Shown here: positions 7,988 to 24,647 of the stretch, in pieces
Position numbering within the stretch: position 1 is the first letter of the stretch
How the letters are laid out: each line of letters begins with the position of its first letter
Origin: Alphaproteobacteria bacterium
Lineage (GTDB): Bacteria > Pseudomonadota > Alphaproteobacteria > GCA-2731375
NCBI GenBank assembly: GCA_030746635.1
Contig: JASLMH010000067.1
Coordinates: forward strand, 1-24,980
DNA: 24,980 nt
Reading direction: 5' to 3'
Program-made: the position numbers and the translations under genes
Notes under the pieces: generated by a model
Seen by the model: the letters and a program-made list of their open reading frames with translations, nothing else
Database searches by the model: none
What the model was told of the DNA's origin: nothing

Positions 7988-8968
7988 TCAAAGCTCCTTG
8001 CGGATGTCGACGATGCGCAGGATGACGACGACGCCGATCATCATCGACAGCATCAGCATCAAGGCGTTCACCGCCGCGAAGGGATAGTTGGCGATGGCGT
8101 AGTAGTTCAGGATCACCGTGCCGGTGGTCGAGGTCTTGCCGCCATAGACCACCACGGCGGTGGCGAATTCGCCCATCAGTATGACGAAGATGAAGATCAT
8201 GCCGATGGCCACGCCGGGCAGCGACAACGGGCCGATAATCTCGCGAAAGATCTGGAACGGCGTCGCCCCCATGTCGCGGGCCGCCTCCAGGATCGCCGGG
8301 TCGATCTTGGACAACGAAAAAAAGATCGGCCCGACGCACAGCACCACGTAGATCTGCACCAGCGCCATGGTATAGCCGAATTCGGAATAGAGCAGGAAGC
8401 TCACCGGCTTGTCGACTATGTCCAGGTTGATCAGCAGGCTGTTCAACAGGCCCCGCCGGCCCAGCATCGGCAGCCAGGCCACGGCGCGGATCAGATACGA
8501 GGTCCAGAACGGCACCATGCAGACCAGGAACAGCGCCATCTGCCACTTGAACGACTGCACCTGCATGGCCAGGAAATAGGCGATCGGGTAACCGACGATC
8601 AGGCACAACACCATGACCACGGCGGTGAAATAGAAAGTCGAGCCAAGGGTGCGGATGAACACGCTGAGGGTCAGGAAGTTGCGGTGTTCCTGATCGAAGA
8701 AGCCCTCGTTGTAGAAATAGCCAGCGTAATATTGCAGCGTCAGGTCAGGGACGAGCCCCCCCTTGGCCGAGGTCCAGAAACTGAAGACGATGATGCTGAT
8801 CAGCGGCAGTACCAGGAACACCAGCAGCCAAAGCGTCGCCGGCGCCACCAGCCAGCCCACCGGGAAGCCCACCTCGCGCCTGGTCTTGCGGGCCTCCGCC
8901 ACCTGCGACGGCCCGACCGGCTGGCCGCCGATCAATCCGCTGTGCTGGGCCTGGGCGAAATCCTGCAT
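7988..8968 (-). CDS. ABC transporter permease, PotB/PotH type.
   Basis: Six predicted TM helices. Lies between the binding-protein and PotC-like genes. The start could instead be an internal GTG, since the SD at the ATG is weak. Confidence 0.8.
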   Translation of the reverse strand: MQDFAQAQHSGLIGGQPVGPSQVAEARKTRREVGFPVGWLVAPATLWLLVFLVLPLISIIVFSFWTSAKGGLVPDLTLQYYAGYFYNEGFFDQEHRNFLTLSVFIRTLGSTFYFTAVVMVLCLIVGYPIAYFLAMQVQSFKWQMALFLVCMVPFWTSYLIRAVAWLPMLGRRGLLNSLLINLDIVDKPVSFLLYSEFGYTMALVQIYVVLCVGPIFFSLSKIDPAILEAARDMGATPFQIFREIIGPLSLPGVAIGMIFIFVILMGEFATAVVVYGGKTSTTGTVILNYYAIANYPFAAVNALMLMLSMMIGVVVILRIVDIRKEL

Positions 8969-9066: not shown

Positions 9067-10353
9067 CTAGGCGCTGAGGAATTCGGTCCAGCGCTTCACC
9101 AGGTAATCGTTCTCGTCCATCAACGAGTTCCAGACGGCGATATTGGCGAACCGGTTCCAGTACGATCCGCCATCACGAACCTCGCCCTTCTCGACGATGA
9201 TGGTGCCGAACGGGTCGGGCAGTTCCTTGGCCGCCGGCTTGCCCTCGTACCAGAAGTCCCACTCCTCGGGCTCCAGGTGTTTCTTGACGTTTTCGGGCAC
9301 CGACATGTAGTAGCCCTGGCGGGCAACAAAGGCGCCGGGCCAGCCGCTGAGCCACCAGTTGATGTACTCATAGCACTGATCCAGCTTCTTGCCGGTGACC
9401 TTGGCGGAAATCGCGCAGCCGCCGTGCCAACCGCGCATGCCTTCCTTCAGGTAGGCGTAGACGCAGGGCACGCCCTCGGCCTTGATGGCCGTGACCGCCG
9501 GCGACCACATGCTTTCCAGCACCACCTCGCCGCTGACCATCAGGTTGACCGACTGGCCGAAGGTCTCCCAGAAGGCGCGGAAATGGCCTTCCTGCTTCTT
9601 CTTGATTAGGAAGTCGATCAGGAAATCGATCTCCGGCTTGGTCATGTTGCCCTTGTCCTTGAACTTGAACAGTCCCAGGGCCTCGATCGCCAGGGAAGCG
9701 TCCATGACGCCGATCTGCGGCACGTTCAACAGGGCCACCTTGCCCTTGAAGTCCGGGCTGAACAATTCGCCCCAGCTTTCGATCTTGCGGCCGGTGTCCT
9801 TGGGGTTGTAGCCCAGGGAATCGGCGTTGTGCCAACCCGGCAACATAGAGATGTAGCGCGAGGGACCCTTGACCCGATTGCCGTCCTCGTCCAGCCACAG
9901 CTGCCGGAATGGGGCATCGCCTTGACCCTGGCTCGAATCCGGGGTCAGACGGCCGGTCTTGCTTAGATTGGTGACCTTGTCCCACTCCTTGATCCGCTTG
10001 GTGTCGATCGGCTGCCAGACCTTGGACGGGATGAACACATCCATGTCGTTGTAATAGCCCTCGGCGATCTCGTACTGATCGTTCTGGTTCAGCATCTTGC
10101 CGAACATGGCGCCATAGCCCAGCGCCTGGCCCCGCACCGGGAAGCCCAGGTCCTTCGAGGCCCTGCCCTGGATCTCGTTGATGATGCTGACGCCCAGGCC
10201 GATGGTGCGGATCGGATCGGCGGCCTGAACGATATTCGGGAAACCGGCGACGCTGCCCGCCGCCACCGCGCCGGCGGCGGTCCCCATGAATTGCCGGCGG
10301 CTTACGCCCCCGTTCGCCACACCTATATGTTTGCTGCCATTCTTCGCGGTCAT
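9067..10353 (-). CDS. Periplasmic substrate-binding protein of a PotD/PotF-family ABC transporter, with a Tat/Sec signal peptide.
   Basis: Real start is MTAKNGSK…SRRQFMGTAAGAVAAGSVAGFPNIVQA (signal peptide). Strong RBS AAAGGGAGG 7 nt upstream of the ATG at 10351-10353. The 1225-aa track ORF is an upstream run-on and was rejected. Confidence 0.85.
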   Translation of the reverse strand: MTAKNGSKHIGVANGGVSRRQFMGTAAGAVAAGSVAGFPNIVQAADPIRTIGLGVSIINEIQGRASKDLGFPVRGQALGYGAMFGKMLNQNDQYEIAEGYYNDMDVFIPSKVWQPIDTKRIKEWDKVTNLSKTGRLTPDSSQGQGDAPFRQLWLDEDGNRVKGPSRYISMLPGWHNADSLGYNPKDTGRKIESWGELFSPDFKGKVALLNVPQIGVMDASLAIEALGLFKFKDKGNMTKPEIDFLIDFLIKKKQEGHFRAFWETFGQSVNLMVSGEVVLESMWSPAVTAIKAEGVPCVYAYLKEGMRGWHGGCAISAKVTGKKLDQCYEYINWWLSGWPGAFVARQGYYMSVPENVKKHLEPEEWDFWYEGKPAAKELPDPFGTIIVEKGEVRDGGSYWNRFANIAVWNSLMDENDYLVKRWTEFLSA

Positions 10354-10476: not shown

Positions 10477-11946
10477 TTGAGCGTGTTGATCAAAAACGGC
10501 CGTATCGTGACGGCGGTGGACGACTACCAGGCGGACGTCTTCGTCAGTGGCGACACCGTGGCCGTGATCGGGCGCAACCTGGCGATCGAGGCCGATCAGG
10601 TGATCGACGCCGCCGGCAAGCTGGTGATCCCCGGCGGCGTCGACCCGCATACCCACCTGGAGATGCCGTTCGGCGGCACCACCACCTCCGACACCTTCGA
10701 GACCGGCACCCGGGCGGCGGCCTTCGGCGGCACCACCTGCATCGTCGATTTCGCCATCCAGACCAAAGGCACCTCGACCCTGGAAGCGCTGGAGACCTGG
10801 CACGGCAAGGCGGCCGGCCGGACCGCCATCGACTATGCCTTCCACATGGTCATCACCGATATGCCGGACGAGCGGGTGCCGGAGATGCGGCGCCTGGCCG
10901 ACGAGGGCGTCACCTCGTACAAGCTGTTCATGGCCTATCCGGGCGTGCTGCTGTCCGACGACGGCACCATCTTCCGGGCCATGCGCAAGGCCGGCGAGGA
11001 CGGCACCCTGGTCTGCATGCATGCCGAGAACGGCATCGTCATCGACGAACTGGTCAAGATCGCCCTGGCGCAAGGCCATATCGAACCGAAGTACCACGCC
11101 CTCACCCGGCCGACCCGGTTGGAGGCGGAGGGCGCGCACCGGGCCCTGGCGATCGCCGAGGTGGCCCGCGCACCGGTCTATATCGTCCACCTCAGTTGCT
11201 ATGACGCCCTGCAGGAACTGCGCATGGCCCAGGCCCGCGGCGTCATGGCCCATGCCGAGACCTGCCCGCAGTATTTGTTGCTGGACGTCGATTGCTATGA
11301 CGAGCCGGGCTTCGACGGCGCCAAGTACGTGCTGACGCCGCCGCTGCGGGAGAAGTGGAACCAGGACGAATTGTGGGGCGGGCTGCGGACCAGCGCCCTG
11401 GACGTGATCTCGACCGACCATTGCCCGTTCTGCATCCGGGAGCAGAAGGAGTTGGGCCGCGACGATTTCAGCCAGATCCCCAACGGCGGGCCGGGCGTCG
11501 AGAACCGCATGAGCCTGATCTATCACCACGGCGTCAGCGGCGGCAACATCACCCTGAACCGGTTCGTCGAGCTGACCTCGACCTCGCCGGCGAAGATCTT
11601 CGGCCTGTTCCCGCGCAAGGGCACCATCGCCGTCGGCAGCGATGCCGACATCGTGATCTTCGATCCGAACCAGGAAGAGACCATCAGCCGCCACAACGCC
11701 CGCACCCACCACATGAACATCGACTACAGCGCCTACGAGGGTTTCAAGGTCAAGGGCTATACCGAGACCGTGCTCTCGCGCGGCAAGATCATCGTCGACA
11801 AGGGCGAGTACCTCGGCCGGCCCGGCGACGGCTCGTTCGTCAAGCGGGGGCCCTACGGCGGGCTCTATTCGGCGACACGGGACGCCGCCCGGCGCGATAT
11901 CCTGGCCGGCGGACCGGTGCTGGGTTCGCCCGGTGCCCGGGGATGA
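10477..11946 (+). CDS. D-hydantoinase / dihydropyrimidinase (cyclic amidohydrolase).
   Basis: MSVLIKNGRIV…VIDAAGKLVIPGGVDPHTHLEMPFGGT…GGTT…DF…YKLFMAY…HAENG…STDHCPF. TTG start with GGAGG 7 nt upstream. Confidence 0.9.
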   Translation: MSVLIKNGRIVTAVDDYQADVFVSGDTVAVIGRNLAIEADQVIDAAGKLVIPGGVDPHTHLEMPFGGTTTSDTFETGTRAAAFGGTTCIVDFAIQTKGTSTLEALETWHGKAAGRTAIDYAFHMVITDMPDERVPEMRRLADEGVTSYKLFMAYPGVLLSDDGTIFRAMRKAGEDGTLVCMHAENGIVIDELVKIALAQGHIEPKYHALTRPTRLEAEGAHRALAIAEVARAPVYIVHLSCYDALQELRMAQARGVMAHAETCPQYLLLDVDCYDEPGFDGAKYVLTPPLREKWNQDELWGGLRTSALDVISTDHCPFCIREQKELGRDDFSQIPNGGPGVENRMSLIYHHGVSGGNITLNRFVELTSTSPAKIFGLFPRKGTIAVGSDADIVIFDPNQEETISRHNARTHHMNIDYSAYEGFKVKGYTETVLSRGKIIVDKGEYLGRPGDGSFVKRGPYGGLYSATRDAARRDILAGGPVLGSPGARG

Positions 11947-11969: not shown

Positions 11970-13130
11970 TCAGGACACCGCGTCGATGCCTCTCTGGTAG
12001 GTGGAGGGCGTCAGTTCCTCTACCGCCTTGGCCCGTTTCGACAGCCAGAAGCTGTAGGCCGGGGGCATCAGCTCGTAGGCGTCCTCCACCCCCAGCTTGA
12101 GGGCCGCGTCCAGCGGCCAGTTCGGGTTGTAGAGCAGTTCGCGGGCCAGGGCGATCAGGTCGGCCTGGCCCCGTTGCAGGATCTCCTCGGCCTGGTCGGC
12201 ATGCACGATCAGGCCGACCGCCATGCTCATCAACCCGGCCTCGGCGCGGATCTTCTCGGCATAAGGCACCTGGTAGCCGTAGCCGACCGGACCGGTACCG
12301 ACCACCGGCGAGCCGCGCATGCCGCCCGAAGAGCAATCGATGACGTCGATGCCCAGATCCTTGACGATGCGGGCCAGGGCGACGTTCTCGTCCGGCCCCC
12401 AGCCGGCGTCGTCCTCCACCGACAGGCGCAGGAAGAGGGGCTTGTGTTGCGGCCAGTTGGCGCGCACGCATTCGGTGACCTCGATGGCGAAGCGCCGGCG
12501 GTTTTCCTCCGTGCCGCCATAATCGTCGTTGCGCCGGTTGGCCATGGGCGAGAGGAACTGATGGATCAGGTAGCCGTGCGCGCCATGGATTTCCAGCATA
12601 TCGAAACCGGCGGCATCGGCTCGCGCCGCCGCCCGGCCCCAGGCCTCGACCACGTCCGGGATTTCGGCCCGGCTCAGGGCCCTGGGCTCGGGGTCGCCGG
12701 GATCGGCCAGGGCGGAGGGCGCCACCAGTTCCCAGGCCTCCCAATCGTCGATCTCGGGGCTCGGCACCAGCGGCTTGGCGCCCTCCCAGGGGCGGAAGCG
12801 CCGCGCCTTGCGGCCGCTATGGCCAATCTGGATGCCCGGGACGGAACCGTGCGCACGGATGAAATCGCTCAGCCGGCGGAACTGCGGCACCACGGCATCG
12901 TCCCACAAGCCCAGATCGCCCACCGTGCCGCAGCCGCGCCGCTCAACCTTGGTGGATTCGACGATCACCAGGCCGGCTCCGCCGACGGCGAAGCGGCCCG
13001 CGTTCATCAGGTGCCAGTCGGTGGGAAAGCCCTTCTCGCCGGCGTATTGATGCATCGGCGCCACGACGACGCGGTTCTTCAGGGTGACATCACGCAGGGT
13101 CAACGGGGAAAACAACATCGGTGCCGTCAT
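11970..13130 (-). CDS. NADH:flavin oxidoreductase of the Old Yellow Enzyme family.
   Basis: TLKNRVVVAPM…HGAHGYLIHQFLSP…NRRNDDYGG…RLS. The track ORF extends to 13163; the ATG at 13130 (MTAPMLFSPL) is the more likely start. Confidence 0.85.
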   Translation of the reverse strand: MTAPMLFSPLTLRDVTLKNRVVVAPMHQYAGEKGFPTDWHLMNAGRFAVGGAGLVIVESTKVERRGCGTVGDLGLWDDAVVPQFRRLSDFIRAHGSVPGIQIGHSGRKARRFRPWEGAKPLVPSPEIDDWEAWELVAPSALADPGDPEPRALSRAEIPDVVEAWGRAAARADAAGFDMLEIHGAHGYLIHQFLSPMANRRNDDYGGTEENRRRFAIEVTECVRANWPQHKPLFLRLSVEDDAGWGPDENVALARIVKDLGIDVIDCSSGGMRGSPVVGTGPVGYGYQVPYAEKIRAEAGLMSMAVGLIVHADQAEEILQRGQADLIALARELLYNPNWPLDAALKLGVEDAYELMPPAYSFWLSKRAKAVEELTPSTYQRGIDAVS

Positions 13131-13203
13131 TGTCGGACTGCCTTTCGCTCGCGCGCGTTTCATTCAACCAGGCCCACTCTAGCAGACAGTCAGCGGGAGT
13201 GAC

Positions 13204-13767
13204 TTATTGCTCCTCCGACCAGTCGCCGCGAACGAAGGCGACGGTGCTGGCATAGCCCTCCCGGTGCAGGCGCTCGACCGTGCCGGCCAGCTTGTCCGGG
13301 CCGTGGGCGGGGATGCCCAGGCCGTTGATGATCCGGTTGTTCATGTTGAACAGGGCGCAGACGGCGGCGGCGTGGTAGAGGGCGATATCGTCCCAGCCGG
13401 CGGCGAACACCGCATCGGCGTCTGCCTGGCTCATCCGTTCCGGGGTGTCGTTGAGCTTGCGGACGTATTTCAGGATCGCCTTCAGCCGATCGGGCAGCGC
13501 CGCCCCATCGATATCGTGCAACAGGGGTTCCAGCACGCCGGGCGCCATGCCGAAGGCCTCGGCCACCGCCGCGTGCTCGCCGTAGCAGAATTCGCAGGCG
13601 TTCAGGCCGGAGACAAAGGCGCCGATCAGCTCCCGCTCGGCCACCGAAAGCGGTGACGGTCCGCGCAACAGGGCCTGGTGATAGGCGGCGAAGGGCAGAC
13701 CGAGTTCCGGATCCAGCTTCAGAACCGCCTTCAGGTCCGCCCGCGGTTGGCTTTTCAGAAAACTCAT
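13204..13767 (-). CDS. Carboxymuconolactone-decarboxylase/AhpD-like peroxidase-related protein (CxxC).
   Basis: Starts MSFLKSQPRADLK with AAGGAG 5 nt upstream. Has the CEFCYGEH motif typical of AhpD-like proteins. The N-terminal extension in the track ORF was rejected. Confidence 0.75.
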   Translation of the reverse strand: MSFLKSQPRADLKAVLKLDPELGLPFAAYHQALLRGPSPLSVAERELIGAFVSGLNACEFCYGEHAAVAEAFGMAPGVLEPLLHDIDGAALPDRLKAILKYVRKLNDTPERMSQADADAVFAAGWDDIALYHAAAVCALFNMNNRIINGLGIPAHGPDKLAGTVERLHREGYASTVAFVRGDWSEEQ

Positions 13768-13777
13768 TGTGGCTCCT

Positions 13778-14512
13778 TTACCTTGACCGATCGGGGGCGG
13801 CGAGAAATCGCAGCAGCCAGGCGGCCATTTCGTCCTCGTGGGTCGGTTGCGCCAGGCTATCCAGGGCATTGTCGACGATAGCCCGGCCGAATTGGTCGCG
13901 CCGCATGGCGTAGAGGTCGGCGGCGAACGCCTTGGTCATTTCCGGATGGCCCTGCAAGGCGACGATGTTGTCGCCGAGCTGGAACAGGCCATAGGGGCAG
14001 AAATCGCTACCGGCCAACAACTCGGCGCCGTCCGGCAGCCGCGTCACCTGATCCTGGTGCGATGCCAGCAAGGCGATTTCGTCCAACGCCGGCGTCATCC
14101 AGTCGCGCCGTCGGCCGACCTGGTAGCTATGGACACCGATACCCCAGCCCCGCGACGAACGTTCGACGGCGCCGCCGAAGGCCTGGGCGACGAGCTGGTG
14201 ACCGAAGCAGATGCCGACGACGGGCCGCGCCTCGGCCGCCGCCCGCGCGAAGGCGGCCAAATCGGCGATCCAGGGATCGTCGTCGAAGGCGCTGTAACGA
14301 CTGCCGGTGATCAACCAGCCGTCGCAGGCCGAGACCGACGCGGGCAACTCGCCCAGGTAGCTGCGGTAGACCCGGAAGGCCGGCTGTTCGTCGCCCCGGC
14401 CGAGGAAGCGCCGGCAGGCATCGGCGAAGCTGCCGTGGCGGGCGGCCAGTTGCTCGGCCACCGCCCCCGCCTCCAGGATACCGATGGTGATCGGCGACGG
14501 AGGAGGCGCCAT
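13778..14512 (-). CDS. Class I glutamine amidotransferase-like protein.
   Basis: Nucleophile elbow GICFGHQL and catalytic LQGHPE. Begins MAPPPSPITIGILEAG. The upstream part of the 436-aa track ORF overlaps the next gene and was rejected. Confidence 0.75.
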   Translation of the reverse strand: MAPPPSPITIGILEAGAVAEQLAARHGSFADACRRFLGRGDEQPAFRVYRSYLGELPASVSACDGWLITGSRYSAFDDDPWIADLAAFARAAAEARPVVGICFGHQLVAQAFGGAVERSSRGWGIGVHSYQVGRRRDWMTPALDEIALLASHQDQVTRLPDGAELLAGSDFCPYGLFQLGDNIVALQGHPEMTKAFAADLYAMRRDQFGRAIVDNALDSLAQPTHEDEMAAWLLRFLAAPDRSR

Positions 14513-14538
14513 CGAAGAGTCCGATTCGCCGTAGGCGA

Positions 14539-15012
14539 TCAGGCCCGGCGGGCCGGGCGCATCACCTTCAACAGCCAGAAGATGACGCAGAAGATGCCGG
14601 TCAGCACCACCAGCGCCACCACCGCCGCCAGCCGTTTGCCGAAGGCCTCGCCCAGGGTATAGCCGTCCTGCAGCAGATAGACGCAGAGGATCTGCACCGA
14701 TTGCAGGGCGGCGCCGGCACTGAGCAGGATGGCGGCGAAGGTCGAGCCGCGCAGCGAGGTTAGGACCATGGATTCGACGCTGCGCTGCTGCACGATATGG
14801 GTGCGATAGGCGCGCCAATGATAGCCGCAGAAGCCGACGATGCCGACGATCAGCACCACCCAGAAGATGGCGTTGTGGTGGCTGAGGCCGTTCAGCACCA
14901 GGGTGAAGAGGTCCTCGAACGGCTGGTAGAAATACAGGAAGATCAGGACGACGATGTAGATGATGAAGCCGACCAGGGTCCAGAACCACTGCCAACCGCT
15001 CATATCCCGCAT
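14539..15012 (-). CDS. Small integral membrane protein (about 4 TM), function unknown.
   Basis: Hydrophobic helices (WFWTLVGFIIYIVVLIFLYF, IFWVVLIVGIVGFCGY, FAAILLSAGAAL, LAAVVALVVLTGIFCVIFWLL). The start is uncertain: ATG at 15012 or 15003, or the longer Arg-rich extension to 15093. Confidence 0.5.
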   Translation of the reverse strand: MRDMSGWQWFWTLVGFIIYIVVLIFLYFYQPFEDLFTLVLNGLSHHNAIFWVVLIVGIVGFCGYHWRAYRTHIVQQRSVESMVLTSLRGSTFAAILLSAGAALQSVQILCVYLLQDGYTLGEAFGKRLAAVVALVVLTGIFCVIFWLLKVMRPARRA

Positions 15013-15120
15013 CCCCTGTTGTCGATACCGCGCCGCTGCCGGCCGGCGATCCGATTTTCTTGTACCCGATCGGCGACGGGCAAGGCAATGCATCGGCCCA
15101 TGGCGGTCATCCCTTCCCCC

Positions 15121-16539
15121 TCACGATGCCAGGGGCGGCCGTCGACGGTGCCATTCGGTGGCCCCCTCGTAGGCCGACGCCACCCGCAGCAGGGTCGGCT
15201 CCTCGAACCAGCCGGCCAGCAATTGCAGGCCCACCGGCAGGCCGTCGGCGGTGAAGCCGCAAGGCACCGAGATCGCCGGTTGCCCGGTGAAACAGGCCAG
15301 CCGGGTCAACTGTCCCAGGGCGCGCCAGCCCTCCACCTTGCGATCGCCGACCCACAGGGCGCCGGTTTCGATCGGCACCGCCGGCAGCGCCGTCGTCGGC
15401 AGCGCCAGCACCGGCGTCTCCGCCAGTACCGCCGCCATCTCCCGGTTGATCCGCATCCGGCTGTCGCGGGCCCGCAGGTACTGGTTGGCGGTGAGGTCCC
15501 GGCCCAGCAACAGCCGCTCGGCGACGTCGGGCGACAATTCATCGCCGTGCCGTGTCAGGTGCCCTTCATGGGTGGCGTAAGCCTCGGCCTGGGCCATGAC
15601 GTTCCAGGCGTCGATGGCCTCGCGATTGAAGGGCAGGACCACCTCCTCGACGGCGGCGCCGAGATCGCTCAACTGGCCGATCGCCGCCTGCACCGCCACC
15701 GCCACCTCCGCGTGCAGGCGATCGAAATAGAAATCCCTGGGCACGCCGATGCGCAAACCGTCCAGGGGTTGCGCCAACGCCGCCGTGTAGTCACGCGCCA
15801 CCGCGCCCGTGGTGGTCGGATCGTCGTCATCGGCGCCGGCGATGGCGCCCAGCAGCAGGGCGGCATCGCGCACCGTGCGGGTCAGCGGGCCGCCATGGTC
15901 GAGGCTGGCGCAGAGCGGATAGATACCGGCCCGGCTGGCCAGGCCATAGGTCTGCTTCAGGCCGACCACGCCGCACAGGGCGGCCGGAATGCGGATCGAG
16001 CCGCCGGTATCGCTGCCCAGCGCGCCGGCGGCCAGCGAGGCCGCCACGGCGCAGCCCGAACCACTGGAGGAGCCGCCGCAGACCCGGTCCCGGCTCCAGG
16101 GGTTTCGCGCCGTGCCGACATGGGGGTTGATGCCGGTGGGGCCGAAGGCGAATTCATGCAGGTTCAGCAGGCCCAGGATGATGGCGCCGGCCCGGCGCAA
16201 CCGGGCGACGGAGGTGGCGTCGCTGTCGGCCACCCCTTCGTCCAGGATCTTCGAGCCGCAGGTCCGCCGCATGCCGGCGACCTGGAACAGATCCTTCACC
16301 GCCAGGGGAATGCCGTGCAACGGGCCGCGATAGGCGCCGGCGGCGATCTCCCGTTCCGCCTGGCTGGCGGCATCCATCGCCTGTTCGGGGTAGAGCGAGA
16401 CGTAGGCGCGCAAGCCACCGTCCAGCGCCTCGATCCGATCCAGTTGCGCCCGCACCAATTCGACCGGCGACAATTCACCGGCGGCGATCCGTTCGCCCAT
16501 GGCGGCGATATCCAGAAGCTCGGGTGCCGCCCCGTTCAT
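15121..16539 (-). CDS. Amidase-signature family amidase.
   Basis: GGSSSGSGCAVAASLAAGALGSDTGGSIRIPAALCG plus the catalytic Lys region GIPLAVKDLF. GGAGG 7 nt upstream. The ATG overlaps the upstream gene's stop (ATGA). Confidence 0.9.
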   Translation of the reverse strand: MNGAAPELLDIAAMGERIAAGELSPVELVRAQLDRIEALDGGLRAYVSLYPEQAMDAASQAEREIAAGAYRGPLHGIPLAVKDLFQVAGMRRTCGSKILDEGVADSDATSVARLRRAGAIILGLLNLHEFAFGPTGINPHVGTARNPWSRDRVCGGSSSGSGCAVAASLAAGALGSDTGGSIRIPAALCGVVGLKQTYGLASRAGIYPLCASLDHGGPLTRTVRDAALLLGAIAGADDDDPTTTGAVARDYTAALAQPLDGLRIGVPRDFYFDRLHAEVAVAVQAAIGQLSDLGAAVEEVVLPFNREAIDAWNVMAQAEAYATHEGHLTRHGDELSPDVAERLLLGRDLTANQYLRARDSRMRINREMAAVLAETPVLALPTTALPAVPIETGALWVGDRKVEGWRALGQLTRLACFTGQPAISVPCGFTADGLPVGLQLLAGWFEEPTLLRVASAYEGATEWHRRRPPLAS

Positions 16540-17606
16540 GCCGCCGCCTCCGGGATCGCCACGATCAGCAGGACGCCGTAGATTACCAGGTACAGGGCAT
16601 CCTTGATGGTTGGGATGACCTGCCGCTCGCCGCTGCCCGGCAGCAACAGGATGATGACCTCCAGCACCAAGGCGATGATGGCCAGGAAGAAGAACGGCCA
16701 AACGCTGCTCCACCAGGACAGGGTTTCCGGCAGTACCACCCCCTGCACCGCCCGCCAGATCAGCAACAGGATCGGCAGGGCGATGAAATAGGCATGCACG
16801 ACGAGGAAACGGTACCGCGTCAGCTTGCGGTCCAGCAGCCAGAAGACCACGAAGAACAGCGCCACGTACAGCACGTCCCAGAACATCGAAGCGTATTTCT
16901 CGCCGCCGCCGTCGCGTTGCAGGTTCAGGAAGCCGAGGAACAGCAGGAACACCATGGCATCGCCCAACAGCCACTCCCGCAAATTTTCCGTCGCGCCCTT
17001 GACGTTCCAGGTGCGCGAGGCCTTGTCGAACAACAACACCAGCGCCACCGCCAGGCTGGCCGGATACAGAAGCCGCAGCACCAGGGCGTACTGTTCGGCC
17101 CGGTCCAGATAGATCCAGTTCAGCAACAGGAAGGCGGCCAGCAGCAGCAACAGGCCCAACAGCCGCACTCCGGACGGCGTCTGCACGGCCGGTTGCGACG
17201 CCGTCGGTTCGGCCGTCGGCGCGGCCACCGGCTCGACCGCGACGGTCCCGGCGCGTGACGATTCCGCGATCAGATAGATCAGGAAGGCCACCAGCCCCAG
17301 GCCGGCGACGATCAGCATGACGACGAAAAACAGGATGGCGCGATCGTCGGCCCGCCAATCCACCGCCTGGGCCAACAGGCCGTCGGCCGAGAACTGCCAG
17401 ACCGCCAGCACCACCACCGCCAGCAGCAGGATCAGGGCGAGCAGGAATTCATACCAGCGCGGGCCGTGCAGAGCCTGCACACCAGCCGCCGCCGCGCCCA
17501 GGGGCCGGCGCAGATAGCGGCTGACCAGGAAGACCAGGAACGCCAGCACGCCGACCACGGCGATGGCGATCATTACCTCCAAAAAGACGACCGATCTGCT
17601 ATCCAC
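16536..17606 (-). CDS. Polytopic (about 10 TM) membrane protein of unknown function, translationally coupled to the amidase gene.
   Basis: Ten hydrophobic segments with an Ala/Pro-rich loop after TM3. Alternative start ATG at 17573 (MIAIAVVG) with GGAGG just upstream. The track start at 17606 is GTG. Confidence 0.6.
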   Translation of the reverse strand: MDSRSVVFLEVMIAIAVVGVLAFLVFLVSRYLRRPLGAAAAGVQALHGPRWYEFLLALILLLAVVVLAVWQFSADGLLAQAVDWRADDRAILFFVVMLIVAGLGLVAFLIYLIAESSRAGTVAVEPVAAPTAEPTASQPAVQTPSGVRLLGLLLLLAAFLLLNWIYLDRAEQYALVLRLLYPASLAVALVLLFDKASRTWNVKGATENLREWLLGDAMVFLLFLGFLNLQRDGGGEKYASMFWDVLYVALFFVVFWLLDRKLTRYRFLVVHAYFIALPILLLIWRAVQGVVLPETLSWWSSVWPFFFLAIIALVLEVIILLLPGSGERQVIPTIKDALYLVIYGVLLIVAIPEAAA

Positions 17607-17722
17607 AACTCATCCCATGCGGCCCGGCGGCGGGCCTACGGTGCCACCGAAAGCCGTTGATTTCAAAGACAACTTGCCATGCCGGAAGTCTGGAGCGTGG
17701 TCCGCTTCCGTCCTTGCCTTGC

Positions 17723-18409
17723 CTAGCGGTTGCGCAGCGGCAGCTTGTCCAGATAGGCCAGGACGTTCTCCAGCGGTTCCACGTCGCCGAACTTGGCGTC
17801 GATATCGAACAGGTTCCACTCGACGACGCCGGCCACCCGGTCGCCGACCGCCTCGCGCACGACGATCGGGCGGAAACCCTCGGCGATGGCATCCTCCACC
17901 GTGTGGCGGACACAACCGGCCATGGTGACGCCGGTGACGATCACCGTGTCGACGCCGGCGGCGCGCAGGAAGCCGGCCAGATAGGTGCCGTGAAAGGCGC
18001 TGGCCCGCTTCTTGATGATCACCTGCTCGTCCGGGCGCGGGGCGATGCGGTCGTCGATCTGCACCGCCTCGGTGCCGACCTGTAGGACCTCGGCCGGGAT
18101 TTTCAGATGCCACAGGCCCATGTCGGTGTTCGGGCCCTGGGTTACCTCGTAGGCGGTCGAGGTATAGACGATGGGGATGCTCTTCTCCCGCGACGCCGCC
18201 AGCAGGTCCTGCACCGCCGGGATGATCACGTCCATATCATCGCAGGTGAAGGCGTGGCCCGGCCGGGTCCAGGCATTCGCCAGATCGATATTGATCAGCG
18301 CCGGCCGCTCGCCATAGCCGATGCGGCGCTGGAAGCCGCGCGATTGGTAGAGTTCGCTGTCGGCGGAAAAGATCTTCTCCAACGCTTCCTTCAATTCGCT
18401 GCTGGTCAT
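17723..18409 (-). CDS. Isochorismatase-family cysteine hydrolase (N-carbamoylsarcosine amidase / maleamate amidohydrolase-like).
   Basis: D-K-C catalytic arrangement: INIDLANAW, KKRASAF, VTGVTMAGCVRHTVEDA. RBS GAGGTGG 6 nt upstream. Confidence 0.85.
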   Translation of the reverse strand: MTSSELKEALEKIFSADSELYQSRGFQRRIGYGERPALINIDLANAWTRPGHAFTCDDMDVIIPAVQDLLAASREKSIPIVYTSTAYEVTQGPNTDMGLWHLKIPAEVLQVGTEAVQIDDRIAPRPDEQVIIKKRASAFHGTYLAGFLRAAGVDTVIVTGVTMAGCVRHTVEDAIAEGFRPIVVREAVGDRVAGVVEWNLFDIDAKFGDVEPLENVLAYLDKLPLRNR

Positions 18410-18483
18410 CGCCCCACCTCGCCGTTCGGATGGCCAAGGCTAGCGCGGAATCCTCGCCCTGGCCATGGTTCGCGAGCCCCGCC

Positions 18484-19416
18484 CTAAGGTCGGGCCTGCC
18501 AGCCGTAGTCCAGGTACTGCCAGGCGATGCGGTCGTGGTCGAGAGTGATGGTGTTGAAGCCTTCCACGGTGCCGTGGTTGGGGCCGGTCCACCAGCGGCC
18601 GCAGATGGCGCCGCCCATGATGAAGGTGGTGCCCCGCCAGCGCAGCAGCTCCTTCACGTGCAGGTGCCCTTGCAGCACCAGCACGAGATTGTGATCGGCG
18701 AACAGCTCCAGCACCGGCAGATTGTTGACCACCACCCGGTTGGGCGGCGGCGTGACGGTGCCGCCCTCGACGGCGCCGTAGTAGGCGGTCAGCAGGGGTA
18801 TGTGGAGGACCACGACGATCGGTTTGGCGCGCGGGAGGCCCGACAATTCGCGGTGGATCCACTCCCGCTGCCGGCGGGAAATCCAGCCGTAATACTGGTA
18901 GTCGTCGCCGGAGACGCGGACCGAATCCAGCAGCATGAAGTGATAGCCGAGGGCATCGAACGACCAAAAGGTGCGCGACCGGCCGAGCCGCCGCCGGTAT
19001 TCGGCCTTGGGATCGGCGATTGGCGGAGAACCGTCGTCGGGCCGGGCCGCCACCAGATCGTGGTTGCCGATCACCGCATGATGCTCGCCCCTGATGGCGT
19101 CGTGCATGGCCATGTAGAGATCCCAGCGCGGCGCCGCCTCGGCCATCGTGGCGTTGAAGCCGCCATGGATCAGGTCGCCGCCACCGAACACCAGATCCGG
19201 CTGTTGGGCATTGATCGCCGCCGCCGCCTGCATCACCGCCTGCGGCGCCCCCCGCCCCAGGTGCGCATGCACATCGGAATAGAACGCCAGCCGCAACCGA
19301 CCCTGTTCCGAGCCCCGCACCGTCCATTCAGTGCGTGCCAGGGCCGGGGCGGCGAGCAGGCCGCCACCGGCGGCCAGGGAATACAACAGGCGGCGCCGGG
19401 AAAGGGCTTGTGACAT
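18484..19416 (-). CDS. Calcineurin-like metallophosphoesterase with a twin-arginine (Tat) signal peptide.
   Basis: Start MSQALSRRRLLYSLAAGGGLLAAPALA, with GGGAG about 8 nt upstream. Motifs DVHAH, GGDLIHGG, GNHD, VLQGHLH. Confidence 0.8.
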   Translation of the reverse strand: MSQALSRRRLLYSLAAGGGLLAAPALARTEWTVRGSEQGRLRLAFYSDVHAHLGRGAPQAVMQAAAAINAQQPDLVFGGGDLIHGGFNATMAEAAPRWDLYMAMHDAIRGEHHAVIGNHDLVAARPDDGSPPIADPKAEYRRRLGRSRTFWSFDALGYHFMLLDSVRVSGDDYQYYGWISRRQREWIHRELSGLPRAKPIVVVLHIPLLTAYYGAVEGGTVTPPPNRVVVNNLPVLELFADHNLVLVLQGHLHVKELLRWRGTTFIMGGAICGRWWTGPNHGTVEGFNTITLDHDRIAWQYLDYGWQARP

Positions 19417-19433
19417 CTCTCTCGCTCCCACGC

Positions 19434-20696
19434 CTACGCCGCCGACGCGGCGCGGCGGCGGGTCCAGCGGCCGCAGATCCATCCCGCCAGCAACAAGACA
19501 ACGACGGTGGCGAGGAAATACCCGGCAAGGGTCGATCGGCTATGGCGGGTGATCAGGTTCTCGCTGACCCGGCTGTCAAACGCCATCCCGACCTGGAGGT
19601 TGGCTTCGACCTGTTCTTTTGACGCGGCGGGCCAGGGGTAGCCGGACGATCGCAAGATATTGCCGAAGTATTTCTCGACGATTTGGTTCTCCCGGTAGGC
19701 CCTGGTGTAGCGCATACGGCGCACGTCCGCGTCCTTGGCCTCGCGCGCCAGTTCAAGATTGCTGTCGCGGCTGAAGAGATGCACCCGCGCCTCGTGCAGG
19801 AAGGGATCGGTGCCGGGGCCATGAATCAACAGAAACTCCCGGTATTTCTCGATTTGCCTGTATTGATCAACGATCCGCCCGACTTCGCTTGCCCGCCGGC
19901 GGTCCAGTCGACTGAGTTCTTCAACGGTAAATCGGGAACGGAACACCCCAATATCCGGGTCACGGTGCAAATGCCCGTATTCGACCATGATGCCGGACCC
20001 CGCGGGCACGATGTCGAGCAGCGGAAAACGCTGGGTGTACCAGGCGATACGGTCCGGCGTATTGAGATAGCAAAGGCCCAGATAGGCGACGCCCGCGGCG
20101 GCACCGAGACACAGCCGACGCAGCCCCCGGCCGTCCGGCCAGCCGACAATCATCTTCGGCCGGATGCCCGCGGCCAGGGCCAGTTGGACCAAGGCGATCG
20201 CCAGCAGATTCAGCCCAATGTCGCGGGCATCGAAGTACCTCTTGGGTGTCAGCCATTGAATGGTCTCATCCAGCATGCCGACCATGGCGCCAACAATGGC
20301 AGCCGCGACATAGATGCTGTAGTCGCGAATACGGCAGGCCAGGGCGCGGAAGATCAACACGCCGAGGGGCCCGTATTCCAGGAAATGGATGGCTTCCTCG
20401 GGACTGCCCGACCCCAGACCGAAGGTCAGATAGATGAAGGCCAAGGTGACGGCGAACAGCCATGCATAGCCGACGGTCGATGTCTGCGCCCGGGTCAATA
20501 GACGGGCCAGGATCGCCACCGCCAGCACCACCACCACGGCGATCACCGTGTAGGTGTAGGTCTCGCGCCCCCAGGCCGCGTTGATTTGTTCGGTGATGCC
20601 GCGCACGAAGGGAATGGTCAGGAAAATGATCCCCGCCCAGAGGGCGACCTGCACCCAGCAGACCCATTCGCGCTGTCGCGGTGGTTGGTCGAACAT
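19434..20696 (-). CDS. VanZ-like domain membrane protein with an additional about 200-aa extramembrane domain and a C-terminal TM anchor.
   Basis: VanZ signature region GMLDETIQWLTPKRYFDARDIGLNLLAIALV after 3-4 TM helices. Start MFDQPP at ATG 20696, with GGAGGGAGG immediately upstream. The stop lies 17 nt before the phosphoesterase start. Confidence 0.7.
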   Translation of the reverse strand: MFDQPPRQREWVCWVQVALWAGIIFLTIPFVRGITEQINAAWGRETYTYTVIAVVVVLAVAILARLLTRAQTSTVGYAWLFAVTLAFIYLTFGLGSGSPEEAIHFLEYGPLGVLIFRALACRIRDYSIYVAAAIVGAMVGMLDETIQWLTPKRYFDARDIGLNLLAIALVQLALAAGIRPKMIVGWPDGRGLRRLCLGAAAGVAYLGLCYLNTPDRIAWYTQRFPLLDIVPAGSGIMVEYGHLHRDPDIGVFRSRFTVEELSRLDRRRASEVGRIVDQYRQIEKYREFLLIHGPGTDPFLHEARVHLFSRDSNLELAREAKDADVRRMRYTRAYRENQIVEKYFGNILRSSGYPWPAASKEQVEANLQVGMAFDSRVSENLITRHSRSTLAGYFLATVVVLLLAGWICGRWTRRRAASAA

Positions 20697-20870: not shown

Positions 20871-21464
20871 ATGCCCAGATCGACAGGCTTCCTCGCAGTA
20901 TCGTTGCTTCTGATGGCCCTATGGTCAGCGCCCGCCGGCGCGGCCGACGTCCACCAGCTCGCCCCGGCCGAACCGCAGCCCGACGCCAAGAGCCTGAAAC
21001 CGGGCCTTGCGGTCGAGTACGTCTACCGGGAGGCCAAGTCCCTGCACGATGCCGAGAGCTACCGCGGCTACAACCTGGAAAGCCGGGGCGAACCGTTGAA
21101 GGGGTTCGTCTATGGCGACACCAACCCGGGCGACGGGGCACTCACGTCGGGGGCCAGCGAACTGGTGATCGCCTACATCAAGGGCTACATGCGGTTCGAG
21201 GCAGGCCAGCACGAGCTGGAGTTCCAATCGAACGACGGGCTTCGCGTCATCCTCGGCGGCGTTCAGGTGTACGAGCACGACCTGCGCCACCCGTGCGTGA
21301 GCAACGGCGCGGTGACGGTGAAGGCACCGCAGGCCGGCTGGTATCCGGTCGAGGCGCTCTACTTCCAGCGTCTGGGCACCTCCTGCCTGGATCTCAGCAT
21401 CCGGCGGCCGGGCGGCGAATGGGATTGGACCGAGCCCGAGATCTACGCCCACCTGCCGGGCTGA
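20871..21464 (+). CDS. Secreted hypothetical protein (Sec signal peptide; possibly a beta-sandwich/PA14-like fold).
   Basis: Signal peptide MPRSTGFLAVSLLLMALWSAPAGAA. No strong SD. Divergent from the VanZ-like gene. Confidence 0.55.
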   Translation: MPRSTGFLAVSLLLMALWSAPAGAADVHQLAPAEPQPDAKSLKPGLAVEYVYREAKSLHDAESYRGYNLESRGEPLKGFVYGDTNPGDGALTSGASELVIAYIKGYMRFEAGQHELEFQSNDGLRVILGGVQVYEHDLRHPCVSNGAVTVKAPQAGWYPVEALYFQRLGTSCLDLSIRRPGGEWDWTEPEIYAHLPG

Positions 21465-21587: not shown

Positions 21588-22229
21588 CTAGCTGTTGCGT
21601 TTGCGGACGTCGTCCAGGTAGCCCAGCACCTCGTCCAGGGTGACCACGTCGGCATAGCGGCGGTGGACGTCGGTCAGGTTGGCGACGTGCGGTCCCTCCT
21701 CGACGTCGCCGACGCAATCCTCGGGCACCGCCACGCGATAGCCGTAGGAAAAGGCGTCGATGATCGAGGCGCGGATGCAGCCCGACGTGTTGCAGCCGGC
21801 GATGATCACGGTGTCCACCCGCTCCTTGACGAAGAATTGCGTGATCGCCGTTTGGAAGAAGATCGACGGCCCGGTCTTGCAATAGACCACGTCGTAGTCG
21901 CGGTCGTAGATGCGCGGCTCCAGTTCGGTGCAGGGATGGCCGTGGTGGAATTCCTCCACCACCGGCGGGATTTTCCAATACGGCGCGTCCCGGGCCGAAC
22001 TGTAAGCGGTGTAGCAGGTGGCCACGGGTATGTTGCCGGCCCGGGCCAGTTCCAGCAGGCGGGCGGTATTTTCCACCGCCCGCTCCACCAGTGGCCGGCC
22101 GCCCAGCGGGAATTCGCTATCGGTGAAGCCGCGCTGGAAGTCGACCACGGCGATCGCCGGCCGTTCGCCGAAACCGATGCGATGGGCCTCGAAGCCGATT
22201 TGCTTGTAGATATCGCCAGCGTCGCTCAT
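21588..22229 (-). CDS. Isochorismatase-family cysteine hydrolase, paralog of 17723..18409.
   Basis: Shares RIGFGERPAIAVVDF, IPVATCYTAY, …VDTVIIAGCNTSGCIRASIIDA… and the C-terminal LDEVLGYLDDVRKRN with the other copy. Confidence 0.85.
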   Translation of the reverse strand: MSDAGDIYKQIGFEAHRIGFGERPAIAVVDFQRGFTDSEFPLGGRPLVERAVENTARLLELARAGNIPVATCYTAYSSARDAPYWKIPPVVEEFHHGHPCTELEPRIYDRDYDVVYCKTGPSIFFQTAITQFFVKERVDTVIIAGCNTSGCIRASIIDAFSYGYRVAVPEDCVGDVEEGPHVANLTDVHRRYADVVTLDEVLGYLDDVRKRNS

Positions 22230-22301: not shown

Positions 22302-22934
22302 CTACTTGGTGCCGTACAGCCGGTCGCCGGCATCGCCCAGGCCCGGCAGGATGTAGCCGATGTCGTTGAGTTGCCGGTCGATGGCGGCGGTCAGGATCGG
22401 CACGTCGGGATGGGCCGCGCCGAACGCTTCGATGCCCTCGGGCGCGGCGACCAGGGCGACGAACTTGATCCGTCGGGCGCCGGCCTCCTTCAGGCGGTGC
22501 ACGGCCGCGGCGGCCGAATTGCCCGTCGCCAGCATCGGATCGACGACGATCACCAGCCGCTCGCCGATATCCTCGGGCAGCTTCAGATAATATTCCACCG
22601 CCTCCAGGGTGTCGTGGTCGCGATACAGGCCGATATGGCCGACCCGGGCCGAGGGGATCAGGTCAAGCATCCCCTCCAACAGGCCGTTGCCGGCCCGCAG
22701 CACCGAGACCAGGCAGAGTTTCTTGCCGGCCAGGGCCGGCGCCCGCATGGTCTCCAATGGCGTGGCGATCTCCACCTCTTCGAGGTCGAGATCGCGGGTC
22801 GCCTCGAACGCCAGCAACAGGCTGATCTCGCGCAGCAACTGCCGGAACTCGGCGGTCGAGGTCTCGACCCGGCGCAACAGCGTCAATTTGTGCTGAATCA
22901 GAGGGTGGTCGGCCACCGTTGCCTTCGCCGCCAT
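22302..22934 (-). CDS. upp: Uracil phosphoribosyltransferase.
   Basis: [72 protein letters not shown]. Confidence 0.9.
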
Positions 22935-23014: not shown

Positions 23015-23680
23015 TCAGACTTGGCGCAGCCGGTTTCGACGGACCCTGTACAGGCCCATCAGACCGGCCAGTAGCGTCGCCAGCGGCGCCGGCTCGGGTA
23101 TCACCAGGGTGCCGCTGACCTGGATCGAATAGGTCCGGGGGTTGGTGTCCCAGACCGTACCGGCGAAGAAGGCGCCGCCGTTCAGATCGTCTATGCTGCC
23201 CTTGAATTCCCCATCCAGCCGGGCCTGGGTGATCGGCTCCCAGGGCCAGTCATGGTTGTTGATGGTCTCGCCACCGTCACTGAAGGCGATCGACGGCTGG
23301 GTCGGTTCCGGGTACCACCAGGCAATGATGTCGTCGGTCTCGACCGTGATCGGACTGGCCAGGGCAAAGGTGTTGACCCCCAGGCTGTTCACCGCCTCCA
23401 AGCCGCTCTCGCCGACGAAATCCCAATTCGCGCCGTTATCGCGATAGATCAGCAGTTTCACCTCGCCGCCGGTGGCGTTGGCGTAGATACTCCAGGAATC
23501 GATCTCGCCGTTGCCGCTGATGCGGCCGTTCAGGTCGAAGAACAGAACGCCGTCGGCGCCGTCCAAGTAGGGCCGGGCAATTACGTCGTTGCCGCCCAGG
23601 ATGGTCGAGGCCAGCGCCGGAACCGGTTGAACCAATAGGGCGAGAGCGACAAGCACCGCCCGTGTACGATGAAAAGTCAT
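23015..23680 (-). CDS. PEP-CTERM sorting-domain protein (predicted exosortase substrate) with an N-terminal signal peptide.
   Basis: Start MTFHRTRAVLVALALLVQPVPALA (AGGAGGGAG upstream). C-terminus …VIPEPAPLATLLAGLMGLYRVRRNRLRQV is PEP, then a hydrophobic helix, then an Arg-rich tail. The upstream TTG extension of the track ORF was rejected. Confidence 0.75.
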   Translation of the reverse strand: MTFHRTRAVLVALALLVQPVPALASTILGGNDVIARPYLDGADGVLFFDLNGRISGNGEIDSWSIYANATGGEVKLLIYRDNGANWDFVGESGLEAVNSLGVNTFALASPITVETDDIIAWWYPEPTQPSIAFSDGGETINNHDWPWEPITQARLDGEFKGSIDDLNGGAFFAGTVWDTNPRTYSIQVSGTLVIPEPAPLATLLAGLMGLYRVRRNRLRQV

Positions 23681-23993: not shown

Positions 23994-24647
23994 ATGGTGG
24001 AAATCAGCTATCCGGCGGACTGGCGCGATATACCGCCCGAAAACTGGTCCAAGATGCGCATGACACCCGAAGCATACACGGCGATGCGGGACGAGCGGCT
24101 GCGACGGGAGGCGGCGGCGCCGGCGGTGGGCGACCCGGCGCCCGATTTCCATCTGGAACGGCTGTCGCCCGAAGGTCGGCGCACGGGCCAAATGTTCCGC
24201 CTGTCCGAAGGGCGGGGCCGGCCCATCGCCCTGGTCTTCGGCTCCTATACCTGACCGCCTTTCCGCATTCAGGCCGTGCGCCTGAACGAGATCGCCGCCA
24301 CCTACCGGGAACAAGTGGATTTCTATTGCGTCTATATCCAGGAGGCACATCCGGACGATGGCTGGCAGGTGCAGCACAACATCGACGACGGCATCATCCA
24401 CGACCGGCCGACCAGCATCGAACAACGCGCCGAACTGGCGGAAGTCTGCGCCCTGCGCCTGAACATGAAAATGCCGATGCTGCTCGACGACATGAGCGAC
24501 CAGGCGGATCGCCTGTATAACGCCCTGCCGGAACGGCTGTACCTGATCGACGCGGATGGCGTCGTTCGGTTCAAGACGGTGGCGGGGTCGATGGGCTTCG
24601 ATCCGGAAGCCTGGACCGCGGCAATTGCCGCCCTGATCAAAGGTTAG
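23994..24647 (+). CDS. Iodothyronine deiodinase-family thioredoxin-fold protein with an in-frame TGA (24252-24254) at the active-site position. Candidate selenoprotein (Sec). The track splits it into ORFs 23994..24254 and 24276..24647.
   Basis: Both track ORFs are in the same frame, 21 nt apart. Read-through gives …RPIALVFGSYT-U-PPFRIQAVRLNEIAATYREQVDFYCVYIQEAHPDDGWQV…LYNALPERLYLIDADGVVRFKT. This matches deiodinase motifs (FGSCTUPPF…VIYIEEAHASDGW…LYAALPERLYII…). Conservation continues through the 21 nt between the two ORFs. Confidence 0.6.
24268..24286 (+). other. Candidate bacterial SECIS-like hairpin 13 nt downstream of the in-frame UGA.
   Basis: UUCAGGC-CGUGC-GCCUGAA. 7-bp stem, 5-nt loop containing GU, with the loop about 21-25 nt after the UGA. 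Confidence 0.35.

Follow-up and report, generated by a model that had tools for sequence, protein, structure and literature searches.

In this study, we analyzed a stretch of 24,980 nucleotides (nt) from an alphaproteobacterial genome (assembly GCA_030746635.1, contig JASLMH010000067.1, positions 1 to 24,980), hereafter the window, and found that the nine genes at 11970-20696 on its minus strand are not one conserved operon or functional unit. The run is probably a mosaic of three parts. Its central block consists of an isochorismatase-fold hydrolase (ISO), a membrane protein with ten transmembrane (TM) segments (10-TM), an amidase, a membrane protein with four TM segments (4-TM), and a class-I glutamine amidotransferase-like protein (GATase). 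Judged by homology and gene neighborhood, this block probably belongs to a proteobacterial island for the uptake and hydrolysis of cyclic ureides. A VanZ-like gene and a metallophosphoesterase gene with a twin-arginine translocation (Tat) signal lie upstream of the block, and an AhpD-like gene and a gene for an old yellow enzyme (OYE) lie downstream. A preliminary description of this DNA had taken the nine genes as one unit with no known pathway. The new element is the orphan membrane pair, 10-TM and 4-TM, together with its coupling to the amidase, and not a new nine-gene pathway.

The G+C content of the window (62-70%) makes mechanical lists of open reading frames (ORFs) noisy. Genes were filtered by third-position G+C (GC3), and start codons were set from ribosome-binding sites and alignments of homologues. 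All nine genes of the preliminary description were present on the minus strand with coding-type GC3 values of 0.78-0.89, and each of its domain assignments was upheld by Pfam or NCBIfam. In transcription order, the genes are separated by 17, 74, 116, -4, 117, 26, 10, and 40-73 nt. The short spacing was therefore as described, and the range of about 17-115 nt given for it was slightly off at both ends (10-117 nt measured). The 117-nt gap between the amidase and 4-TM genes becomes 108 nt when an earlier ATG is used as the 4-TM start. The negative value is a 4-nt ATGA overlap of the 10-TM stop and the amidase start, which was read directly as GCGGCATGAACGGG. The run is limited upstream by a divergent PA14-domain gene and downstream by a convergent D-hydantoinase gene. 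The same proteins were found on a contig of an uncultured alphaproteobacterial metagenome-assembled genome (MAG), GCA_030744475.1, and two metagenome contigs from the Joint Genome Institute carried them in identical gene order. A run of nine co-directional genes is not statistically remarkable in a bacterial genome.

We then examined the conservation of the run in related loci. A profile of the 10-TM protein built from 21 homologues gave 111 genomic matches in a collection of 185,579 species-representative genomes. From these, 80 loci were kept with flanks of up to 10 kb on each side, including 53 full-size loci with full flanks, and single loci are cited below by L numbers. Every protein of the window was searched against the 80 loci by tblastn, and a match was defined as identity of at least 35% with coverage of at least 50%. 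All of the loci came from MAGs, mainly of Alphaproteobacteria/Rhodospirillaceae with some Gamma- and Betaproteobacteria, and no cultured organism was among them. The 10-TM/4-TM family appears to be confined to uncultured marine and soil Proteobacteria. The 4-TM gene was present in 52 of the 53 full-size loci (74/80 overall), adjoining the 10-TM gene or the amidase gene and just downstream of it. The amidase was found in 31/53 full-size loci (45/80 overall), and ISO was present no more than 10 kb from the 10-TM gene in 32/53 (37/80 overall). ISO was directly upstream of the 10-TM gene in L030 and L044, at an identity of 83-84%. The GATase was found in 8/53 full-size loci (14/80 overall), all of them in the closest marine clade, where it comes after the 4-TM gene and an enoyl-CoA hydratase gene. 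The VanZ-like protein, the phosphoesterase, AhpD, and OYE were found in none of the 80 10-TM loci by tblastn, and the neighboring PA14 protein was found in none of the 53 full-size loci. With four of its nine genes in 0/80 loci, the cluster as a whole is not co-conserved, and a sub-cluster survives. The amidase, 10-TM, and GATase had been singled out as a trio for such a comparison; the amidase holds up as a neighbor of the 10-TM gene, and the GATase does so in the closest clade only.

Two further genes were seen in these relatives and are missing from the window. The enoyl-CoA hydratase gene stands between the 4-TM and GATase genes in 14 loci. An ORF of 300 amino acids (aa) with no Pfam match stands between the amidase and 4-TM genes in seven marine-clade loci (L008:12425-13327 and six others).

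To identify what the 10-TM gene travels with, the ORFs of the loci were clustered all against all, and Pfam was run on the cluster representatives. Of the 53 full-size loci, 38 had HyuA at a distance of up to 10 kb from the 10-TM gene, and HyuB was likewise a recurrent neighbor of the membrane pair. An ATP-binding cassette (ABC) importer was also frequent, with an SBP_bac_8 binding protein in 45/53 and two permeases in 43/53 and 41/53 full-size loci, at identities of 73-81%. A 489-aa D-hydantoinase was found in 37/53 (median identity 82%), a second isochorismatase paralogue (ISO2) in 35/53, and uracil phosphoribosyltransferase (UPRT) in 22/80 loci at 87% identity. Further recurrent neighbors were an ABC ATPase, a polysaccharide-deacetylase-family protein, CobW, and an SPFH-type protein of 600-950 aa. 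One typical gene order was ISO-HyuA-HyuB-10TM-4TM-D-hydantoinase (reverse strand)-SBP-permease-permease. In an alternative order, HyuB, HyuA, and ISO on the reverse strand were followed by 10TM-4TM and then by the binding protein onward. The gaps from HyuB to the 10-TM gene were mostly 5-58 nt; 3 of 21 measured gaps were longer, up to 250 nt. A YrdC/Sua5-like protein with the threonylcarbamoyl-AMP synthase fold was seen in 31/53 islands (for example L005, where it is upstream of the 10-TM gene, L053, and L075:4011-4706). It is absent from the window. Its presence is an intriguing tie of a carbamoyl-adenylate-forming fold to the catabolism of carbamoyl amino acids.

The window holds most of these families outside the nine-gene run, as assigned by Pfam unless noted. 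The plus strand carries the C-terminus of HyuB (1-714), an SPFH-domain membrane protein of 938 aa (795-3611), an ABC ATPase (3733-4848), and the 489-aa D-hydantoinase/dihydropyrimidinase (10477..11946; PDB 1YNY and 3SFW), which is convergent with OYE. The minus strand carries the importer (permeases at 7157-7984 and 7988-8968, SBP_bac_8 at 9067-10353), ISO2 (21588-22229), and UPRT (22302-22934). The order of ABC ATPase, SPFH-type protein (cluster c34), and HyuB was also found in L066 and L073. The SPFH/Band-7 protein of the window, which has a single TM segment at its N-terminus, is 72% identical to cluster c34; in several islands, its gene is placed between those of the ABC ATPase and HyuB. 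On the source contig, the genes that adjoin the window on its left side encode HyuA (684 aa), full-length HyuB, a polysaccharide-deacetylase-family protein, CobW, and a third isochorismatase. The distance of HyuA and HyuB from ISO is about 17 kb. The island takes up most of the window and extends beyond its left end. Since nearly all of the recurrent island families are in or beside the window, these results suggest that it is a rearranged copy of one conserved island.

The enzymes of the central block were compared with characterized proteins. ISO (228 aa; 17723..18409) has the PF00857 domain (E 2e-31) and aligned with N-carbamoylsarcosine amidase of Arthrobacter (PDB 1NBA) at E 8.4e-82 and 277 bits, with about 58% identity over 220 residues (5-224 against 14-235). 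The two proteins share the D in NIDLANAW, the K in IKKRASAF, and the C in AGCVRHT, and we take these Asp, Lys, and Cys residues to be the catalytic triad of 1NBA. ISO2 has 32% identity to ISO and is also closest to structures of the N-carbamoylsarcosine amidase type. The 489-aa amidohydrolase of the window matched the D-hydantoinase/dihydropyrimidinase structures at E values of about 1e-166. It has been reported that cshA and hyuB are paired in Corynebacterium glutamicum, where creatinine is converted through N-methylhydantoin and N-carbamoylsarcosine to sarcosine (PMC8864220). The identity level reported there for CshA, the partner of HyuB in creatinine degradation, is the same as that of ISO (PMC8864220). 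The passages of PMC6742649 and PMC12623156 that cite Wyss and Kaddurah-Daouk also join an ATP-dependent N-methylhydantoinase and N-carbamoylsarcosine amidase in creatinine degradation. The preliminary description had found no known pathway for the run; the closeness of ISO to N-carbamoylsarcosine amidase and the presence of HyuA/HyuB, D-hydantoinase, and an ABC importer mark a hydantoin-type island instead.

The amidase (472 aa; 15121..16539) matched PF01425 at E 2.5e-116 and 390 bits and has the GGSSSGS motif. Among the NCBIfam models, those of the AtzE family ranked highest for it. Membership in that family was rejected, with scores of 345 bits against a cutoff of 461 for NF006631 and 331 against 425.75 for TIGR02715. 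Judged by its sequence, it is a generic amidase-signature enzyme. The GATase (244 aa; 13778..14512) matched PF00117 (E 1e-14), and its translation has the GICFGHQ and GHPE motifs of a Cys-His-Glu triad. The PRK05665 model scored 220 bits, under the cutoff of 309 bits, and its closest solved structure was gamma-glutamyl peptidase 1. No gene for a partner synthase was found in the nine-gene run. Because it stands alone and resembles gamma-glutamyl peptidase, the GATase is more likely a hydrolase than an amidotransferase. The ABC binding protein had only a remote likeness to PotD-type proteins, which is uninformative about its ligand. An FAD-dependent oxidase in the window was considered as a sarcosine oxidase; its best match was L-amino acid deaminase, sarcosine and glycine oxidases came next, and the comparison was not decisive.

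The 10-TM protein (356 aa; 16536..17606) starts with GTG, as do its homologues, and its hydropathy profile has ten hydrophobic segments. Three variable N-terminal TM segments and an Ala/Pro-rich linker precede a conserved C-terminal half of seven helices, which contains many invariant charged and Trp residues. At least 306 full-length homologues were found, all of them unannotated. The 4-TM protein (154 aa; 14539..15003) has four hydrophobic segments and 599 homologues, mostly at least 72% identical. Its identity across the loci was 63-87% (median about 70%), and E33, N47, C62, H65, Q104, Q107, C142, and R152 are invariant. The statement in the preliminary description that these two proteins have no recognizable family was confirmed. 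Neither protein had a match in Pfam or NCBIfam, and profile searches of both families against PDB sequences gave nothing. Pfam scans of 21 members per family at E values up to 5 gave no consistent family. When 1.84 billion representative proteins were searched with a profile, 132 clusters were returned, all of which were the family itself or its fragments; none exceeded 438 aa, and no fusions were found. The structure prediction that had been proposed for both proteins was performed with AlphaFold2. The 10-TM model had a predicted local distance difference test (pLDDT) score of 65.6, better in the conserved seven-helix half, and the 4-TM model had a pLDDT of 79 with four helices. A Foldseek search of the 4-TM model against PDB gave nothing at E < 1.

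We found that the amidase gene comes after the 10-TM gene in 34 loci, and the 4-nt overlap, as ATGA or GTGA, was kept in 28 of them at amidase identities of 54-73%. The ATGA overlap noticed in the preliminary description is thus a conserved feature. Its retention across diverged amidases argues for a stoichiometric functional link between the 10-TM protein and the amidase. A paralogue of 4-TM (175 aa, 34% identity, E 6e-24) was seen at L119 4784-5311 (-), left of the window. It is divergent from HyuA-HyuB and has no 10-TM partner. The paralogue recurs in 21 other loci, for example L051, L053, and L081, at 63-72% identity. Its position beside HyuA suggests that the small-subunit family is tied to the ATP-dependent hydantoinase as well. 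In the literature, we found no description of membrane proteins linked to hyuA/hyuB. We infer that the 10-TM and 4-TM proteins most likely form a membrane transport complex, a permease or channel, coupled to the amidase. A wider proposal is more tentative and has less than even chances in our estimate: 10-TM, 4-TM, and its paralogue may be heteromeric membrane complexes of a family not described before, dedicated to hydantoin or N-carbamoyl metabolism, either a new type of permease or a platform that channels substrate to the coupled amidase or hydantoinase.

These observations can be arranged into a putative pathway. A ring compound would be imported, and either HyuAB, which depends on ATP, or the D-hydantoinase, which depends on a metal, would then open the ring to yield an N-carbamoyl amino acid. 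The isochorismatase of the N-carbamoylsarcosine amidase type would release the amino acid, NH3, and CO2, and the amidase-signature enzyme and the GATase-like hydrolase may cut additional amide bonds. The 10-TM and 4-TM proteins would form a membrane complex, most likely a permease or channel for the substrate or product of the pathway, and the conserved start/stop overlap would fix the ratio in which 10-TM and amidase are produced. The island set consists of HyuA/HyuB, a D-hydantoinase, an ABC importer, UPRT, and two or three carbamoylases with the isochorismatase fold, and the substrate may be a hydantoin, N-methylhydantoin, N-carbamoyl amino acids, or a compound of the dihydropyrimidine type. 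Uptake and stepwise deamidation of an amide compound, as had been suggested for the nine genes, fits the central genes and does not fit the run as a unit.

Several points weigh against this reading. Every one of the 80 related loci is an uncultured MAG, and the closest marine relatives have no HyuAB within 10 kb of the 10-TM gene. The FAD oxidase of the window cannot be assigned specifically as a sarcosine oxidase and was present in just one of the 80 loci, and no creatinine or cytosine deaminase was seen in the Pfam annotation of the window. Dihydropyrimidines would suit the strongly conserved D-hydantoinase and UPRT just as well. A transport role is assigned to the membrane pair by association only, and with the ABC importer in 45/53 loci a second importer would be partly redundant. 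The structural models are moderate, and no known transporter fold was matched. In addition, the nine genes could still be co-transcribed, as no internal terminator was predicted, though the scan was at background.

One alternative is that the island serves mainly the reductive catabolism or salvage of pyrimidines, in which dihydrouracil or dihydrothymine would be converted to N-carbamoyl-beta-amino acids and the isochorismatases or the amidase would replace beta-ureidopropionase. This would agree with the D-hydantoinase/dihydropyrimidinase being the most conserved island enzyme, with the linkage of UPRT, and with the absence of a creatinine deaminase from the window. It is harder to reconcile with the identity of about 58% between ISO and a bona fide N-carbamoylsarcosine amidase, with ATP-dependent HyuAB of the N-methylhydantoinase type in 38/53 loci, and with the window, in which no dihydropyrimidine dehydrogenase was seen. 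We consider a mainly pyrimidine-directed island somewhat unlikely, and the pyrimidine and N-methylhydantoin readings are not mutually exclusive.

A serious alternative for the membrane pair is that the island is as proposed and that 10-TM and 4-TM are not a transporter. They might instead be an anchor or scaffold for the amidase or HyuAB, a sensor, or a membrane-embedded enzyme. An ABC importer already stands beside the pair in most loci, the translational coupling conserved next to it is to a soluble enzyme, and the 4-TM paralogue occurs beside HyuA without a 10-TM partner. The strong conservation of 4-TM, with invariant Cys, His, Glu, and Arg residues, would suit a cofactor or catalytic site, and a known transporter fold was not recovered. 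Against these points, the whole family is free of catalytic, signaling, or soluble domains and of fusions to known domains. Many invariant charged or polar residues lie in or near the predicted helices of the C-terminal seven-helix half, as is typical of permeases. A role other than transport is unlikely in our judgment, and a transport complex remains the preferred assignment for the pair.

The outer genes of the run were examined separately. The VanZ-like protein (420 aa; 19434..20696, minus strand) scored 32.9 bits for PF04892 against a cutoff of 30.1 and was above the cutoff for NF037970 too. It has five N-terminal TM segments, a soluble part of about 200 aa, and a C-terminal TM segment, and its GC3 of 0.78 is the lowest of the run. 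This architecture of 414-420 aa is a conserved family in its own right, with full-length homologues of about 414 aa. The phosphoesterase (310 aa; 18484..19416, minus strand) matched PF00149 at E 2.5e-12 and 48 bits (cutoff 21.5). Its N-terminus, MSQALSRRRLLYSLAAGGGLLAAPALA, has a twin-arginine signal (SRRRLL...ALA) that was read by eye without a dedicated signal-peptide predictor. An assignment as an anti-phage phosphoesterase was rejected, with an NCBIfam score of 18 bits against a cutoff of 420. In all three unrelated loci L085-L087, the gene next after the VanZ-like one, at a distance of -8 to +64 nt, is a Metallophos gene of 313-314 aa that is 60-62% identical to that of the window. The contexts of the three pairs were GntR/amino-acid ABC, creatinase-like, and two-component-system genes. 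One of these loci is in the same MAG as L036, where the 10-TM gene is on a different contig. Because the pair occurs in 3/3 foreign contexts and in 0/80 10-TM loci, it is a separate module; the VanZ-like protein and the Tat phosphoesterase are an independent envelope module inserted upstream of the central block. We found no description of this pair in the literature. The envelope detoxification proposed in the preliminary description could apply only to this pair and does not extend to the remaining genes.

At the other end of the run, the AhpD/CMD-family CxxC protein (187 aa; 13204..13767, minus strand) has a CEFC motif and scored 92.9 bits for TIGR01926 (cutoff 81.8). The OYE flavin oxidoreductase (386-397 aa; 11970..13130 or 13163, minus strand) matched PF00724 at E 2.5e-64. 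Homologues of AhpD with 28-68% identity were found in 31 metagenome loci, and no other cluster gene (OYE, GATase, or 4-TM) adjoined them. A conserved AhpD-OYE redox pair was therefore rejected, and AhpD and OYE are lineage-specific additions downstream.

The transcription of the run was considered from its sequence. A promoter-like motif, TTGCCT-N18-TACAAG (15059..15088, minus strand), was read directly in the spacer upstream of the 4-TM gene. A spacer of about 90-155 nt before this gene is a constant feature of the loci, and TTGnnn-N18-TAnnnn was found 70-107 nt upstream of the 4-TM start in 12/75 loci against 4.6 +/- 2.0 in shuffles. These results are suggestive only of an internal promoter before the 4-TM gene. 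Consensus scans for promoters and terminators were at the background of shuffled sequence, and Rfam at gathering thresholds gave 0 matches in the whole window. That all nine genes form one operon for a single new pathway, either uptake, deamidation, and reduction of an amide or envelope detoxification, is very unlikely: co-directional packing with one overlap, the lack of a convincing internal terminator, and the divergent and convergent genes at the borders would allow it, but four of the genes are in none of the related loci, the VanZ/phosphoesterase pair travels on its own and is on a different contig in a related MAG, AhpD homologues are unlinked to OYE or other genes of the run, and a promoter-like motif precedes the 4-TM gene.

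Three other genes of the window were seen on either side of ISO2 and UPRT. At 23994-24647 on the plus strand, two annotated ORFs of 86 aa and 123-126 aa are one gene split by an in-frame TGA at 24252-24254. It reads ALVFGSYT*PPFR, in which the stop takes the place of selenocysteine in the active-site motif of the deiodinase/thioredoxin fold, and its downstream half matched PF00837 (T4_deiodinase) at E 4.6e-15. A 7-bp hairpin (TTCAGGC-CGTGC-GCCTGAA) begins about 15 nt after the TGA, as for a bacterial selenocysteine insertion sequence element. Homologues of the gene were found in 10-11 of the 80 loci. From these features, it is probably an unannotated selenoprotein gene. A small secreted protein of 221 aa at 23015-23680 (minus strand) ends in ...VIPEPAPLATLLAGLMGLYRVRRNR, a PEP-CTERM-like sorting signal. 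Another small secreted protein, of 183 aa with a PA14 domain, is encoded at 20913-21464 (plus strand), divergent from the VanZ-like gene. Conservation in the related loci was seen for neither of these two proteins.

The tight co-directional packing of three evolutionarily independent pieces calls for caution with operon assignments made from spacing alone. The labels "hypothetical" and "isochorismatase" on the central genes can be read anew as parts of an island for the catabolism of hydantoins and N-carbamoyl amino acids. Such a route would matter for the recycling of organic nitrogen from creatinine, pyrimidines, or purines in ocean and soil. The two membrane families without Pfam matches are the most faithful markers of the island and are candidates for its missing transporter or for a new membrane partner.

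Parts of the window resemble systems described before. The VanZ family (PF04892) shares the N-terminal TM domain of the window protein, which differs in having about 250 extra residues (the soluble domain and the C-terminal TM segment), in its pairing with a phosphoesterase, and in having no link to glycopeptide-resistance genes. The DUF969/DUF979 membrane pair adjoins 5-oxoprolinase genes and has been proposed to be a two-subunit 5-oxoproline transporter. The likeness to it is by analogy only: a small and a larger polytopic protein stand side by side in a locus for cyclic-amide hydrolysis, and transport is inferred. Unlike that pair, all 42 aligned members of the 10-TM and 4-TM families were free of DUF969 or DUF979 matches in Pfam scans. 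The amidase-signature ureide hydrolases, such as the 1-carboxybiuret hydrolase AtzE and allophanate hydrolase, share with the window amidase the fold, the GGSSSGS motif, and a setting of ureido/carbamoyl catabolism. The window amidase differs from AtzE in scoring below the family cutoff, in having no AtzG-like small subunit identified, and in being coupled to the 10-TM protein.

Bacterial hyu clusters combine a hydantoinase, an N-carbamoyl-amino-acid amidohydrolase, a racemase, and a permease such as Mhp1/HyuP of the NCS1 family. The island likewise brings together a ring-opening hydantoinase, a carbamoylase, and a dedicated transporter. Its carbamoylase, however, is of the isochorismatase type and belongs to neither the nitrilase nor the peptidase M20 type. 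A racemase was not seen, and in place of an NCS1 permease the island has an ABC system together with the orphan membrane pair. The creatinine/N-methylhydantoin genes of Arthrobacter, Pseudomonas putida, and C. glutamicum ATCC 14067 (PMC8864220) are similar in that an isochorismatase-fold carbamoylase is linked to HyuA/HyuB, and an FAD amine oxidase is near the island genes of the window as well. The window differs from them in having no creatinine/cytosine deaminase or creatininase. It also has components in addition to theirs, namely a D-hydantoinase, an ABC importer, an amidase-signature amidase, the orphan membrane pair, and a GATase-like hydrolase. The transporter of the clusters in C. glutamicum and Pseudomonas is instead of the MFS type.

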